Part shown: positions 35,951 through 39,448 of the stretch, one piece after another
How the letters are laid out: every line of letters starts with the position of its first letter
Numbering within the stretch: position 1 is the stretch's first letter
DNA from: Candidatus Harrisonbacteria bacterium
Lineage (GTDB): Bacteria > Patescibacteriota > Minisyncoccia > UBA6257 > 02-FULL-45-10c
NCBI GenBank assembly: GCA_016192685.1
Contig: JACPTS010000001.1
Coordinates: 33,412-97,411 of the forward strand
Direction of reading: 5' to 3'
DNA length: 64,000 nucleotides
The notes under the pieces: model-generated
Database searches by the model: none
What the model saw: the letters and a program-made list of their open reading frames with translations, nothing else
What the model was told of the DNA's origin: nothing
Translations under genes and position numbers: made by a program

Positions 35951-37195
35951 TTTTTAAAGAAAACTTTCTAGTTATCCCAACCTTATGCGGCCCGAATTTA
36001 ATCGGACAAGCAAATCGAGACTTGAGGCTCCTCGATCAAAACCTTTGCCTGCATTTTTCAATGCAGTATCGTACTCCATCAAATATAAATATTTGATTTT
36101 TGTTTAATTGATCCACGCACAGCTTCCGCTACGCGTGCCTTGTTACGACTTCTTCCATGTCACCGAATCTACCTTTATCCCGCCGAAGCGGAATTTCAGA
36201 TATCCCCGGCTCCCCTGAAGTGACGGGCGGTGAGTACAGGACTCGAGAACGTATTCACCGCGGCGTGCTGATCCGCGATTACTAGCGATTCCGACTTCAT
36301 GGAGGCGAGTTTCAGCCTCCAATCTGAACTGGGGCCATTTTTGATGGGATTAGCTCCGCCTTGCGGCTTGGCAACCCATTGTAATGGCCATTGTAGCACG
36401 AGTGTAGCCCAGGGCATCAGAGGGCCATGCGGATTTGACGTCATCCTCTCCTTCCTCCCCCAAAAAGAGGGCAGTCCCCGATGACACATATAACATCAGG
36501 TAAGGGTTGCGCTCGTTACCCCACTTAAGGGAACGTTTCAAAATACGAGCTGACGACAACCATGCAGCACCTGTCCAGCCGTTCCTTGAGAGAACATCCC
36601 ACGTTTCTGCGGGATTTCGTCTGGATTTCAAGCCCTGGTAAGGTTTCTCGCTTACTGTCGAATTGAACCTCATGCTCCACCGCTTGTGCGAGTCCCCGTC
36701 TATTCCTTTGAGTTTTAGCCTTGCGGCCGTACTTCCCAGGCGGCCTACTTAACGCGTTAGCTTCGCCACCCCGAGGGTCGATACTCGAGATAGCCAGTAG
36801 GCATCGTTTAGGGCGTGGACTACAAGGGTATCTACAATTTTGTTGCTTCGCAAAACTTTTATACTCGCTATGCTATTCTCGCTCATACTGCTGCGCGCTG
36901 GACAAAACTAATTCGCTCATAGCGGAAATTTATCACCCTAGTCGCATTCGCTCCTGGGTATCCCGATAAATTTCCTATTCGCTCAAAGTTTTGTAACCAT
37001 CGCTCCGCAACATTCGCTCAAACAGCATAACTCGTTTAATAATAGTTTTGCGTGACACAGACATTTCTGCTGTGTTCTCTGTGTTGCCATAGAGTTCGGA
37101 CTATATCATTCTCGCGCTTTGAAAAACGAATATCAATCATCTTGATACTCGTAGATCAAAGAGCGAGAATCGGCGTATAGTCTCTGAGGGGTTAA

Positions 37196-37450
37196 TTATT
37201 TTCCTTTTAATTTTTTGAGGTGTTTTTTCACGGTACGATCAACTAATTTAAACTCCGGTTCTTCCAAAATATCATGCGTTGTATATCCATATCTCTTACG
37301 GTCATTGGTTTTCCAAATTGCTTCAATAGACGGCAATCCTCTGCTTTTCAGTTCTTCATTCACGGTTTCTAGAACAGCTTTTAATTTCTTATTTGATTTG
37401 CTTGTGCAAACGATTTCTACAAACCTAAATTTTGAGTCAGGCCTTGACAT
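37196..37450 (-). CDS. intron-encoded small basic protein (84 aa from MSRPDSK), function unknown (no LAGLIDADG/GIY-YIG motif seen)
   Basis: preceded by a perfect Shine-Dalgarno AAGGAGGTG 7 nt upstream of ATG; embedded in the rRNA insertion. Confidence 0.35.
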   Translation of the reverse strand: MSRPDSKFRFVEIVCTSKSNKKLKAVLETVNEELKSRGLPSIEAIWKTNDRKRYGYTTHDILEEPEFKLVDRTVKKHLKKLKGK

Positions 37451-37803
37451 CGTCCACCTCCTTTTTAAATTAACTTCCCTGCTGGTTGTCCGCACCGACG
37501 CGTTTTCACCAGCGATTTGTTTTTGAAATTTCAAAAACAAATCGCTGGTAGCGTCGGATACGCCGGATTTTCCAGCATATAGCCGATTTTACATTCCAGT
37601 GTTGCCACTGAAAGGGACCATATGCGTCTCCGGAAAATTCCGGAGTCACTTCTTTATACCCTAAAGAGAGTGAGATTATTTTTGCGAACCAATAAAATTA
37701 TATTTGCTTCACTTATTTATCTATTTATCGTGCGGCAACATTTATTTTAATTTCTTGCCGAACTGCCGAGTTATCATAGAGAAACTTTATACAATCTAAA
37801 CGA

Positions 37804-37952
37804 GCTCTGCCTGTGTTTCGTGCGGCAACTACGGAGCTCCGAAATGCTTGGCTTTCGCGAAGCGAAAATTTCGGAGCGAGGCGTAGACGCGTTTCGCCGC
37901 AGGAGCGAAACGACGCCGGTGCCGTCAGAAATACAGGCGGAGCGAGTAAAAC
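37804..37952 (+). repeat. structured repeat family 1, copy 2 (inside the rRNA insertion)
   Basis: core identical to copies at 20079..20221 and 63517..63667; own terminal inverted repeat c(t/c)gcctgt(g/a)tttc. Confidence 0.6.
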
Positions 37953-38170
37953 TCATAGACAATTCGGCGGAGCGGCATTTTCAAAATGAATGCCGATGCC
38001 GGTAGACAAATAAGTGAAGCAAATGAGTTCGTAAAAATAACCGAACGATCCTTTTTGCTCCCCACGCTTTCGTGCAATGAGAGTCAGTAATGCGCCAGCC
38101 AAATGCTTTCGCCTTTGGTATTCCCCACGATATCAACGGATTTCACCCCTACACCGTGAGTTCTATTGGC

Positions 38171-38459
38171 CTCTCGCACACTCTAGACAAGTCCCCTCTG
38201 TACAAATGTTTCCACTAAATTGAAATCATTGATTTTGTATCAAGTTCAAGGCGCGAGGAGGAAATCGTAGGGTTACCTACCTTTCCGACTCGCAACGCAG
38301 AAATTGATCAAAATCAAGATTCCCGAAGGGTAAGGAAATTTTTGTCAGCTTCTTCGTTAGTCGTCGCTAGTGTATCTAAAGATACACTTCGCTCCTCCTG
38401 CCTTGAATTTAACTCAAAATTTCCTTATCAATTAGTGAAAATATTTGTACAGAGGGGAC
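38171..38459 (-). other. ~290-nt intervening sequence (IVS) in 16S helix region ~E. coli 650, bounded by a perfect 33-bp inverted repeat
   Basis: gtcccctctgtacaaatgtttccactaaattga ... tcaattagtgaaaatatttgtacagaggggac; flanks align to 16S; core homologous to 61408..61678. Confidence 0.7.
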
Positions 38460-38989
38460 AGCAGTTTTTGCTGCAGCCTCGAAGTTGAGCCCCGAGATTT
38501 AACAGCAAACTTGCTGGTCCTCCTACGCACTCTTTACGCCCAATAAATCCGGATAACGCTTGGAGCCCTCGTATTACCGCGGCTGCTGGCACGAGGTTAG
38601 CAGCTCCTTATTCCTCTGGTACTATCAGCCTTGCGGCTTTCTCCCAGAGAAAAGCAGTTTACAATCCTTAGACCTTCATCCTGCACGCGGCGTCGCTCGA
38701 TCAGGCTTTCGCCCATTGTCGAATATTCTCGACTGCTGCCACCCGTAGGTGTACGAGCCGTGTCTCAGTCTCGTCGTTGGGGAACACCCTCTCAGGCCCC
38801 CTACTGGTCATAGCCTTGGTAGGCCATTACCCTACCAACTAGCTGATCAGACCTAGGCCGCTCCCAAAGCCCCTTGCGGGTTTTAATCCGAATGTTGCAT
38901 CGGATGCTATCGGGCATTACCCCGCCTTTCGGCGAGCTGTGCCCGTCTTTAGGGTACGTACCAAGGTGTTACTAACTCGTTCGCCGCTC

Positions 38990-39075
38990 GCCTTCGGCTC
39001 GGACAAATAACTTTTAACAAATAACTAATAACGAAATTGTTAATAGTTATAAGTTATTTAGTTATTAGTCCGAGC
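38990..39075 (-). other. expanded V1 helix of 16S (~60-nt AT-rich palindromic extension)
   Basis: ggactaataactaaataacttataactattaacaatttcgttattagttatttgttaaaagttatttgtccgag between conserved GCAAGTCG and GGCGAACG. Confidence 0.5.
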
Positions 39076-39448
39076 TAAAAGCTCGCACGACTTGCATGCC
39101 TTATCCACGCCGCCAGCGTTCATCCTGGACCAGGATCAAATCCTCTAAATAAAAGTCAGTTGCACAGAACCCTCGAACGAGTTCCTAGCAACTAACCTTC
39201 GTATTGGGACAACTAGAAAATTTTCTTTTTTACTTGTAATTTTACTAAATTACTAAATTTTATATATTTAGTTATCAAGCCAGCATGTATTATCTTTAAT
39301 TAGTAAAAATAATACACCTATCTTGCGGTTCGTGGTTTTCACCGAGTCAAACTCGGCTTCACACCAGCGGCAAGATAGATGCATTTAGAACCTATCTAGT
39401 AATCTATGAAATTTTTAAATAAAAACTTATTTCATTAAGGTAGTTCTA

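Follow-up and report, generated by a model that had tools for sequence, protein, structure and literature searches.

Interrupted rRNA genes are well documented in the CPR, and the finding of an interrupted 16S gene is therefore not new in itself. Group I introns of CPR 16S genes have been described by Brown et al. (2015) and Tsurumaki et al. (2024, PMC11270868), and the sections of the latter survey considered here bear out the original prediction in its statement that rRNA introns and protein-coding insertions are known from such genes. In these sections, intron ORFs are annotated by Pfam, LAGLIDADG and GIY-YIG are almost the only families found, and introns lacking an annotated protein domain are counted as ORF-less. 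The locus analyzed here resembles those introns in its CPR host, in carrying several insertions within one 16S gene, in a core detectable with RF00028, in an ORF located in a peripheral loop and in the use of site S788, which is occupied in dozens of genomes. It differs in that its ORF encodes an orphan 84-aa protein under purifying selection, and in that the loop of helix P1 (L1) holds a structured module which, together with its free-standing copies, is not described in the sections of PMC11270868 considered. Small orphan genes are missed by surveys that annotate intron ORFs through Pfam alone.

Group I introns also occur in the 16S genes of Thiomargarita (Salman et al. 2012), where some reportedly carry LAGLIDADG genes and where splicing is said to have been shown experimentally. 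The Thiomargarita introns are said to occupy sites other than S788 and belong to a different phylum, and we know of no small non-endonuclease ORF or dispersed module reported for them. Twin-ribozyme introns (Didymium/Naegleria GIR1+HEG+GIR2) likewise combine a structured RNA domain and a protein gene in peripheral loops. This likeness is an analogy only: the L1 module matched neither GIR1 nor any other Rfam ribozyme and, being in a different loop (L1) from the ORF (L6), is not positioned to process the 5′ end of the ORF.

RNase III-type intervening sequences (IVSs), found in bacterial 23S and more rarely in 16S genes, are non-intron blocks of ~100-300 nt closed by a long duplex. According to the sections of PMC11270868 considered, their distribution across relatives is patchy and they are believed to have been acquired horizontally. 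A second insertion of the present gene, in helix 21 (h21), shares their size and closing duplex; unlike classical IVSs, which replace helix tips, it is located at a helix base, close to a three-way junction, and an intercistronic spacer elsewhere in the genome holds a sibling copy. Repeats of the REP/BIME and MITE types resemble the module and the h21 element in being dispersed, strand-biased, structured, ~135-270 nt long and located between co-directional genes, some beside U-runs. Unlike these repeats, one of the two families described here is, across phyla, a conserved domain of an rRNA intron, with stems that covary strongly as RNA, and no RAYT or IS200-like transposase was seen.

The window is the whole 64,000-nt stretch of DNA analyzed; all coordinates refer to it and all features given below lie on its minus strand. 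RF00177 (SSU_rRNA_bacteria) matched at 39151..36101 in two pieces (575 and 653 bits) that cover model positions 1-1533, giving a 16S rRNA gene of 3051 nt including insertions. The conserved 16S blocks are thus present and in order, as proposed earlier, whereas the limits then given (36105-39133, strand omitted) were slightly short. It is very probable that the locus is the single 16S rRNA gene of a Candidatus Harrisonbacteria (Parcubacteria, CPR) genome, carrying three insertions: an intron at S788, the h21 block and an expansion of V1. The insertions are not a product of chance, since the joined S788 exons yield exactly the universal GGAUUAGAUACCC and an exon-intron junction identical to that of the window is present on an independent 700-nt contig (L083).

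The exon ending in GGAU stops at 38048 and the downstream exon, UAGAUACCC, starts at 36834, so that the S788 insertion comprises 38047..36835 (1213 nt, after U788; first nucleotide C38047, terminal G or omegaG 36835). The junction reads ...GGAU/C......UUG/UAGAUACCC, with a U preceding the intron and a G as its last nucleotide, as at group I boundaries. The original prediction had placed the insertion correctly between GGAT and UAGAUACCC, but its ends (36838..38046) were off by 3 and 1 nt. In a 1.9-kb search, RF00028 matched 37657..37077 over the full model (1-253) with 42.5 bits and an E-value of 5e-9. This is below the gathering score of 50, which is a scoring threshold and not a structural criterion; the score is lowered by loop insertions of 22, 65 and 261 nt. 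The genome collection contains ~60 S788 insertions, many of which end in ..AACAAAAUUG as the window intron does, and blastn blocks are common to the latter and more than 45 of the collection. In an alignment of 29 related introns at this site, 57 pairs in nine helices (P2-P9.1) were paired in 88.2% of cells, against at most 41% for slid partners and with none of 500 shuffles as high; 43 of the 57 pairs showed compensatory changes. The window intron forms all core helices tested, and its comparison with L083 revealed compensatory changes in P2 and P5a. RF00028 match, homologues and covariation together confirm, at the sequence level, the predicted group I intron at S788 as genuine; its family is widespread among the 16S genes of CPR bacteria.

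The 3′ half of the catalytic core (37055..37182) was delimited from the Rfam alignment and the covariation table. It contains P7 (GACUAUA 37182-37176 / UAUAGUC 37105-37099), P3′ (GCCGAUU 37174-37168), P8 (37167-37111), P9 with a GCAA loop (37094-37077) and P9.1 with a conserved AGAAAU loop (37075-37055). Upstream, P6 (GGG..GUUAAUU 37479-37468 / AAUUAAC..CCC 37197-37188) encloses a loop that is exactly filled by the ORF. P5 is extended by a perfect 21-bp palindromic hairpin, P5b (37508..37549, inverted repeat I20), which the Rfam alignment assigns to L5; it is kept in L083, which has lost the two sides of the loop-closing pair together.

The internal guide AUAUG-GUCC (37615..37623) serves P1 and P10. 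P1 consists of GUCC (37618-37615) paired with exon GGAU and places a U-G wobble at the splice site; the GGAU/GUCC pairing is found in all 29 aligned S788 introns. A fifth P1 pair is G-C or G-U in hosts with GGGAU and a compensated A-U in one relative (L080, AGGAU/GUCCU); in the window, P1 has 4 bp, followed by an A-C mismatch and an A-U pair. For P10, the guide is AUAUG (37623-37619), four of whose five positions pair with the 3′ exon UAGAU. Self-splicing of the intron would restore GGAUUAGAUACCC in helix 24. The window intron has weak points: the mismatch in the P10 guide, an A-C mismatch in P9 and a final hairpin that is degenerate compared with relatives. Given these and the 4-bp P1, splicing might conceivably be reduced or protein-dependent.

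Between the 5′ splice site and the guide lies an expanded L1 of ~420 nt (37625..38047). In relatives with a short L1 the guide, AUCUG-GUCCC, is only 3-15 nt from the 5′ splice site, and positions 425-500 of the window intron align with positions 3-80 of these relatives. The expansion is closed by a helix P1a, CGUU (38047-38044) / GACG (37628-37625), which covaries in relatives (GUUU/AAAC, GCUC/GAGC, GUUC/GAAC). Inside it are a long-range helix of GGUUAUUUUU (38042-38033) with AAAAAUAAUC (37683-37674), a 21-22-bp helix (38023-38003 / 37723-37702, inverted repeat I21) and, from folding, hairpins at 37666-37652 (GGGUA loop) and 37644-37629.

Nested in L1, at 37806..37939, is a 135-nt three-way-junction RNA (CM R1, 129 bits). 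This is the copy of 'repeat family 1' that had been noticed in the insertion; its reading as a casual hitch-hiker was rejected, and it is instead a conserved structured domain of the intron P1 loop. The same module is present in 11 other S788 introns, at intron positions ~20-170. On 17 copies, 93.9% of cells pair, a value inflated by the fitting of the covariation alignment to the model, and 37 of 38 pairs show compensatory changes. Judged by this covariation, the module is a structured RNA common to at least 12 class-B S788 introns (the 11 relatives and that of the window). No Rfam 15 family reached its gathering score in the window for the module or the h21 insert, and permissive E-values over 36700-38600 and 63480-63700 gave only spurious miRNA or sRNA matches.

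Further copies are found in the genome of the window between co-directional genes and past the 16S gene. One (35782..35921; CM R1 40.7 bits, E 2e-10) lies 180 nt downstream of the 16S 3′ end, between 29-nt inverted repeats (35745-35773 / 35928-35956, I10) that are followed by a U-run. Two others score 141 bits each with CM R1: that at 63523..63658 is located between an intrinsic terminator and the start (63499) of rpe, identified by Pfam, and that at 20079..20214 begins 14 nt past the stop of a YqeY-like gene and is followed by UUUUUU. A weak or partial copy (42757..42897; CM R1 25 bits, E 3e-5) is found just downstream of the bL25 gene. The free-standing copies would have intercistronic or terminator-associated roles, and mobility or recombination of the family is probable.

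The module is a candidate new RNA family common to intron loops across phyla and to intergenic spacers of one genome, a distribution that hints at an exchange of genomic repeats with the peripheral domains of ribozymes. Alternatively, both the module and the h21 insert could be selfish, non-autonomous mobile DNA of MITE or REP type, forming hairpins at the DNA level in tolerant landing sites and having no RNA function. Several dispersed copies in intergenic spacers fit this explanation, as does the greater likeness of the window intron copy to the intergenic copy at 63523 than that of the orthologous L083 copy. The L1 interior is, moreover, wholly different between two introns that are 93% identical elsewhere, the intron copy is surrounded by partial and inverted fragments, and each copy comes with an outer stem of its own, as insertion into hairpins already present would produce. 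Against it, the same place in L1 is occupied in 11 introns from several CPR lineages, all five window copies lie on the minus strand, which is the transcribed one, 13 of 17 copies have a U-G at one pair that would be mismatched if the other strand were read, and no transposase is associated with the module in the window. On balance, selfish DNA keeps a substantial minority share of the probability. A further proposal, unlikely as it stands, is that the module is an undescribed RNA family that is both a P1-loop domain of widespread CPR rRNA introns and, in the lineage of the window, a dispersed, terminator-adjacent intercistronic element, coupled to the carriage by class-B S788 introns of small non-endonuclease genes with conserved GGAGG leaders. 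If true, the module would be either an escaped and co-opted intron RNA or a new non-autonomous element with hairpin loops, those of ribozymes among them, as its targets.

The h21 insertion comprises 38191..38459 (269 nt), as delimited by inverted repeat I7 and folding. It is located at the base of helix 21, on the 3′ strand, just before the AGAG of h22 and adjoining the h20/h21/h22 junction, with an ambiguity of the junction by a 3-nt GTC repeat. Its closing stem (38459-38432 / 38218-38191) has 28-nt arms that are 93% complementary, with 17 perfect bp, one mismatch and ~10 bp. An insert with a closing stem had been predicted here, whereas its proposed dimensions (38171..38459, ~290 nt, a perfect 33-bp stem) gave way to 269 nt and an imperfect 28-bp stem. 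The distance from position 515 to 788 is 545 nt in the window compared to 273-278 nt in 57 other 16S genes, none of which has the insertion, and the excess over 11 aligned relatives is exactly 269 nt. A search for the empty site in a close relative found none, a metagenome scan giving a chance match only. The element has a second copy at 61395..61665 (D12, 66 nt at 79%), between the halves of a split transketolase gene. Over 68 nt the cores of the two copies share 81% identity, and compensation in the inner hairpin is complete (UAGG/CCUA vs CAGC/GCUG). These comparisons identify the 269-nt block as a copy, specific to this lineage, of another structured element of intercistronic spacers, and its sibling in an operon spacer points to the same exchange with genomic repeats as the module does.

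The third insertion expands V1 (helix 6) at 38997..39075 into an AU-rich hairpin on an 8-bp GC-rich base (-42 kcal/mol). It accounts for 73 nt where the Rfam model has four positions, in agreement with the expansion of ~60 nt noticed earlier. The h21 and V1 insertions, and conceivably parts of the intron, might remain in mature 16S as expansion segments, like ES6 in helix 21 of eukaryotic 18S. Large expansions of h21 are tolerated in eukaryotes, and the V1 hairpin sits at a helix tip of widely varying length: the distance from position 8 to 338 is 392 nt in the window, 330 in E. coli and 295 to 1172 among relatives. For the V1 hairpin, retention as an expansion is the simplest reading. Retention of the intron is opposed by its intact, covarying core and by the position of 788 in the conserved loop of helix 24; that of the h21 block is opposed by an insertion point at a helix base by a junction, not at a tip, and by a closing duplex typical of RNase III substrates. 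CPR rRNA insertions have also been reported missing from transcripts (Brown 2015, as cited in the sections of PMC11270868 considered), and retention as a general account is rather improbable. For the h21 block, an RNase III-type IVS is a plausible reading of the 28-bp stem, whose 28-nt arms exceed the ~20 bp or more usual for the closing duplex of an IVS. The stem would be a likely RNase III substrate, and its cleavage would leave a fragmented 16S rRNA.

The small ORF predicted in the S788 insertion extends over 37196..37450 (ATG 37450, stop ending at 37196) in the ORF listing and encodes 84 aa with a pI of 9.9; the annotated version, HYY86_00400, starts too far upstream. The dN/dS of the ORF is 0.29 relative to L083, within a range of 0.29-0.46. 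Homologues were limited to P0002 and P0003 among 1.84e9 representative proteins and 5.8e9 clusters, and P0003 stands free, upstream of a gene for a MutY/Nth-like glycosylase (HhH-GPD). These data indicate a real protein-coding gene under purifying selection in a three-member orphan family. Profile searches of Pfam, PHROGs and NCBIfam gave no endonuclease-family match even at E up to 10 or 1, which upholds the earlier remark that the ORF has no LAGLIDADG or GIY-YIG signature. PADLOC gave no matches, a profile search of PDB sequences gave none below E 0.06, and the LAGLIDADG ORFs of sister introns did not match the 84-aa ORF (phmmer --max). AF2 on the three-sequence alignment predicted a beta-alpha-beta-beta-alpha fold with a pLDDT of 81. 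The product is perhaps a small basic nucleic-acid-binding alpha/beta protein, a cargo or accessory protein and not an endonuclease.

It is quite improbable that the ORF encodes a homing endonuclease of very small size or in a degenerate state, or the DNA-binding remnant of one, and is a past or present driver of intron mobility. Its location in a peripheral loop (L6) is shared with homing-endonuclease genes, sister introns at S788 carry LAGLIDADG genes of 210-290 aa, and the protein is basic; however, it matched no endonuclease family, no catalytic pattern of conserved His/Cys or of an acidic pair is evident among its invariant residues, purifying selection acts on it where decay would be expected of a remnant, one homologue is free-standing in an ordinary gene context, and the predicted fold is generic. 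Other introns of the same S788 family carry unrelated small ORFs. Together with the selected orphan ORF and its free-standing relative, these suggest that rRNA introns in these minimal genomes may serve to carry cargo genes transcribed along with the rRNA.

Six nucleotides upstream of the ATG, an SD-like AAGGAGGUG can be read from the sequence at 37455..37463. The 'perfect SD' of the original prediction exists, in that AAGGAGGTG is found at 37463-37455, but it does not hold as evidence of canonical translation. The 3′ tail of the 16S gene, GGAUCAAUUAAAC, has no CCUCC anti-SD by comparison with relatives by eye, an alteration also seen in four other genomes; CCTCC was absent within 3 kb downstream of the gene, and SD enrichment was not found among host genes. 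Since the 16S lacks an anti-SD and host genes lack SD enrichment, the motif cannot act canonically. Loss of the anti-SD motif in Parcubacteria has been published (Tsurumaki 2022, PMC9297842). AAAAAGGAGGU is nevertheless identical in L083 despite a proportion of synonymous differences (pS) of 0.45, and a pairing of the SD-like motif with CACCUC close to the 3′ end of the ORF is predicted (p 0.99 for the window, 0.34 for L083). The conserved GGAGG motif may pair with this CACCUC instead. Translation could conceivably occur from pre-rRNA or the excised intron through an SD-independent route of the host. If the module does combine its intron and intercistronic roles as proposed above, conserved GGAGG leaders in hosts without anti-SD would imply a role of the motif other than ribosome pairing. 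Its retention in such a host offers a natural test case for roles of this kind.

That the locus is chimeric through misassembly, or a 16S pseudogene that is no longer functional, is extremely improbable: the rRNA loci of metagenome-assembled genomes (MAGs) are prone to misassembly and the anti-SD is missing, but every conserved 16S block is there, ordered and high-scoring, the flanks of each insertion are exact consensus, the exon-intron junction recurs on L083, the altered 3′ tail is common to four other genomes, motif loss is published for Parcubacteria (PMC9297842), and the locus sits on a 608-kb contig.

The intron 3′ tail holds an array of five (U)GAGCGA(A)U motifs (GAGCGAAU array; 36884..37026) spaced by ~33 nt, with first bases at 37019, 36984, 36953, 36918 and 36884. 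GAGCGAA occurs seven times on the minus strand of the 64-kb window, four of them within ~100 nt in this tail. Other members of the intron family carry different short repeats in this tail.

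The 16S rRNA gene lies on the minus strand (39151..36101), where two matches to the Rfam bacterial SSU model jointly span model positions 1-1533. Three insertions bring its length to 3051 nt; the original prediction of a 16S gene with three insertions was borne out, and its overall interpretation was essentially right. The gene itself had been located correctly, its limits being off by a few nt and its strand not given. No 23S gene was found in the window. That CPR 16S genes are full of group I introns and other insertions is an established phenomenon, as described in PMC11270868 and PMC9297842 (Brown 2015 as cited there). 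Four features go beyond what is known: an orphan, presumed cargo gene under selection with a free-standing relative, a Shine-Dalgarno (SD)-like motif conserved although the host lacks an anti-SD, an undescribed, strongly covarying RNA module common to intron P1 loops across lineages and to intergenic spacers here, and, at the h21 base, a unique insertion that stems from a different genomic repeat.

In minus-strand reading, the last bases of the 5′ exon are ...GGGGAGCAAAAAGGAU, up to 38048, and exon sequence restarts with UAGAUACCCUUGUAGUCC at 36834. Excision of insertion (i), 1213 nt at E. coli position 788 (site S788), therefore restores the universal GGAUUAGAUACCC of helix 24. The last nucleotide of the 5′ exon is U and that of the insert is G. 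Using a permissive Rfam search, the entire Intron_gpI model was aligned at 37657..37077 (42.5 bits, E 5e-9), the score falling under the gathering score of 50 because of large insertions in three loops. A species-representative genome collection was then scanned for S788 insertions as 16S genes with G, not U, ahead of UAGAUACCC. This gave 82 loci, about 60 of them with an insertion of 291-1415 nt at exactly S788, and the hosts were mostly CPR lineages with several Solirubrobacterales. Conserved blocks were common to the window intron and more than 45 of these ∼60 insertions.

Covariation was assessed on "mini-introns" from 29 S788 introns, obtained by joining core segments and removing variable loops; the helices put to the test were those read off the window sequence. 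Across P2, P3, P4, P5, P6, P7, P8, P9, and P9.1 (57 pairs), 88.2% of cells were paired versus at most 41% with slid partners. Compensatory changes occurred in 43 of the 57 core pairs, and none of 500 shuffles reached the observed values. P1, formed by exon GGAU and guide GUCC with U-G at the splice site, was found in 29/29 introns, and the adjoining pair is compensated in one relative (L080: exon AGGAU, guide GUCCU). The group I intron predicted at S788 was thus confirmed by exon junction, Intron_gpI match and core covariation, and the Infernal/Rfam comparison suggested for it mapped the group I core; the exon junction places the boundaries at 38047..36835. On structural criteria, membership of the group I class is established; catalysis we only infer.

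Where relatives have a short 5′ end, their guide (AUCUG-GUCCC) stands 3-15 nt from the splice site. The homologous window guide, AUAUG-GUCC, is found at intron positions 425-433, so that ∼420 nt lie within the P1 loop (L1). This expanded-P1-loop layout ("class B") is orderly and common to many relatives. The first intron nucleotides pair with those just 5′ of the guide in helix P1a (CGUU/GACG in the window; GUUU/AAAC, GCUC/GAGC, and GUUC/GAAC in relatives). The L1 interior is closed by a long-range helix of 10 bp (38042-38033 with 37683-37674, minus strand) and a 21-22-bp helix (38023-38003 with 37723-37702, minus strand), and a hairpin with a conserved GGGUA loop stands 5′ of the guide. The P2 loop is GCAA, the P5 extension (P5b; 37549-37508, minus strand) is a perfect 21-bp palindrome, P6 (GGG..GUUAAUU with AAUUAAC..CCC) exactly encloses the ORF, and P7 is GACUAUA/UAUAGUC. 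The P9 loop is GCAA and the P9.1 loop is AGAAAU, conserved in the intron family. In the 3′ tail (36884-37026, minus strand), five (U)GAGCGA(A)U motifs (GAGCGAAU; TGAGCGAAT four to five times) are arrayed at ∼33-nt spacing, and four of the seven GAGCGAA occurrences on the minus strand of the whole window fall within ∼100 nt of this tail. Tails of five relatives (L010, L040, L054, L067, L081) carry other short repeats, including TTAGAAAT up to seven times. The blemishes of the window intron are mild (P1 has 4 bp and then an A-C mismatch, one position of the P10 guide is mismatched, P9 contains an A-C mismatch, and the final hairpin is degenerate) and leave room for inefficient or protein-assisted splicing.

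The intron ORF encodes 84 aa, from ATG 37450 to a stop whose last base is 37196; at 112 aa, with a start within the P5b palindrome, the database annotation is overlong. HMMER, run in full over 1.84 billion representative proteins, yielded only two true relatives, P0002 (68% identity) and P0003 (51%), and profile search of 5.8 billion clusters added no further homologue. The P0002 gene lies on an independent 700-nt contig (L083), whose start is again this 16S exon followed by this intron; the ORF fills L6 there too, and the ribozyme core is ∼93% identical to that of the window, with compensatory changes in P2 and P5a. The P0003 gene stands free, and an HhH-GPD (MutY/Nth-type) glycosylase gene follows 28 nt downstream. 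As dN/dS was 0.29 between the two intron copies and 0.34-0.46 versus the free-standing gene, the ORF is a translated gene and no chance frame. Using an alignment of the three sequences, AlphaFold2 gave a confident small beta-alpha-beta-beta-alpha domain (pLDDT 81), superseding the poor all-helical model from the single sequence (pLDDT 65). The protein is basic (pI 9.9); our best guess, made with low confidence, is that it binds nucleic acid and serves as an accessory or as cargo. It is unlikely to be a homing endonuclease: no significant match came from Pfam, PHROGs, NCBIfam, PADLOC, or PDB sequence profiles, in line with the predicted lack of a LAGLIDADG or GIY-YIG signature, and the profile search that had been proposed for the ORF ended with the two homologues and no significant domain match. 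Apparent PAS kinship (P0004-P0011) was treated as spurious, these being multi-repeat PAS proteins that sum weak stretches of 20-26% identity; Pfam PAS models did not match the ORF.

The "perfect SD" ahead of this ORF is present and conserved, and as proof of translation it fails, since the host 16S is without an anti-SD. The motif AAAAAGGAGGU is identical in both intron copies although 45% of synonymous sites differ, and has therefore been maintained. The 16S 3′ end (36101-36125) reads ...GCGUGGAUCAAUUAAAC (tail GGAUCAAUUAAAC), not GGAUCACCUCCUUA, and contains no CCUCC. Four other Parcubacteria genomes of the sample share this tail (L022, L037, L042, L057), and other Parcubacteria have different non-CCUCC tails; the anti-SD motif is lost in about half of Parcubacteria (PMC9297842). 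AGGA/GGAG/GAGG precedes 5 of 52 long window ORFs, equal to the background of 9.8%, and host leaders are ∼80% A+U. The SD-like motif is thus a paradox here and no proof of translation. It may be a structural element, a relic that persists through repeated transfer out of hosts that use SD, or something else. Its predicted partner is CACCUC, which encodes His-Leu within the conserved KKHLKKL; the pairing has a probability of 0.99 in the window and 0.34 in L083. An altered SD/anti-SD pair, with leaders complementary to the tail GUUUAAUUGAUC, was rejected, the leaders being merely A/U-rich; the longest leader match to the new tail averaged 4.22 versus 4.40 ± 0.15 in shuffled sequences and 4.11 in control windows. 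A 3′ exon with CCUCC hidden behind a fourth intron was dismissed, as CCTCC/CTCCT is absent from the gene strand for 3 kb downstream.

Sister introns carry LAGLIDADG genes in P8 or L6, and many class-B introns hold small ORFs (54-90 aa) in L5 or L6 with AAGGAG-like leaders and without a Pfam domain. S788 introns with small ORFs were L005, L007, L015, L019, L027, L039, L041, L047, L049, L067, L075, and L082; in the hosts of L027, L039, and L049 the 16S tail is also without CCUCC. The small class-B ORFs are related neither to one another nor to the window ORF. Ten other small SD-led intron ORFs showed no Pfam domain and no mutual clustering, and the idea that the window ORF is common to other S788 introns was rejected, phmmer --max against all sense ORFs of 60 introns giving no match. 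In the published survey of CPR rRNA insertions (PMC11270868), ORF annotation was by Pfam only, so introns with such small ORFs would count there as ORF-less.

The copy of "repeat family 1" announced for the intron was indeed found, and by covariation it is also a structured RNA domain. A three-way junction is the fold of both this copy (37939-37806) and the dispersed ones, with stems that vary in sequence but keep their pairing. A covariance model (R1) built from six copies yielded five copies in the window, every one on the minus strand: 63658-63523, 20214-20079, the intron copy, 35921-35782 (180 nt past the 16S 3′ end), and a weak one at 42897-42757. Among 84 loci (L001-L084), R1 detected 11 further S788 introns with the module, from various CPR lineages; its place is always at about positions 20-170 of the intron, hence within L1, and no copy lay outside introns. 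In 17 aligned copies, 93.9% of cells were paired versus at most 53% in slid controls, with compensatory changes in 37 of 38 pairs, figures to be read with the caveat that the alignment is model-fitted. The U-G state of one pair in 13 of the 17 copies favours the RNA sense strand. The family has no counterpart in Rfam. The window intron copy is nearer to its intergenic counterpart at 63523 than to the L083 orthologue, and the rest of the L1 interior is unalignable between these two introns and contains partial and inverted fragments, so the module family is one that recombines or moves. Co-directional genes flank the free-standing copies, and a U-run comes after these copies but not after the intron copy; for the free-standing ones we infer a terminator-associated or intercistronic role. 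The intron tail of L081 contains an antisense copy of the module.

From the 515 site to position 788, the window gene measures 545 nt versus 273-278 nt in all 57 other 16S genes of the loci. Insertion (ii) (38459..38191) accounts for an excess of exactly 269 nt; its closing stem is 28 bp with two imperfections and not the perfect 33 bp of the original prediction. Compared with relatives, it sits in the 3′ strand at the h21 base, a few nt before the AGAG of h22, and is bounded by a 3-nt GTC repeat. Its core is shared with an element at 61665-61395 (81% identity over 68 nt, inner hairpin fully compensated), so that insertion (ii) represents a second intercistronic structured element, in a copy specific to this lineage. 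Searching the window and 85 loci with blastn and nhmmer gave only these two copies. A metagenome scan aimed at near relatives whose h21 site is empty gave one match, due to chance and devoid of rRNA. The long duplex suggests that insertion (ii) may be excised by RNase III, leaving a fragmented 16S; the alternative is that it would be retained as an extra arm. rRNA mimicry, with the second copy as an r-protein leader, was rejected because that copy is flanked by the halves of a split transketolase gene. At insertion (iii), helix 6 is extended by 79 AU-rich nt (38997-39075), in a region where relatives vary far more.

The transketolase is encoded by two separate genes for its N-terminal and C-terminal halves (60331-61359 and 62010-62870, minus strand), and their 650-nt spacer contains a small ORF as well as the sibling h21 element. 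A hydrophobic ORF of 73 aa upstream of the 16S gene (39584-39805, minus strand) has an 81%-identical stretch in this spacer (61760-61838); the two resemble paralogous genes for small membrane proteins. A third repeat family of ∼140 nt, with CCCCGGCC..GGCCGGGG hairpins, occurs in inverted orientation at 1030-1171 and 39854-39995, one copy lying ∼700 nt upstream of the 16S 5′ end. The palindrome ATACCCCTTATTCGTACGAATAAGGGGTAT occurs in near-identical form at 39485-39522 and 19348-19382; A/T-rich sequence follows it, and it resembles a bidirectional terminator. Upstream of the 16S leader, the bL31 gene (40316-40573, plus strand) precedes a peptide-chain release factor gene (40654-41376, plus strand) of only 240 aa; its PCRF domain match begins at profile position 101, and the N-terminal domain seems to be missing. 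Finally, five tandem 141-nt repeats (65-76% identity) at 25989-26803 lie within an ORF at 25619-27445 (minus strand), so that its 608-aa protein is repetitive.
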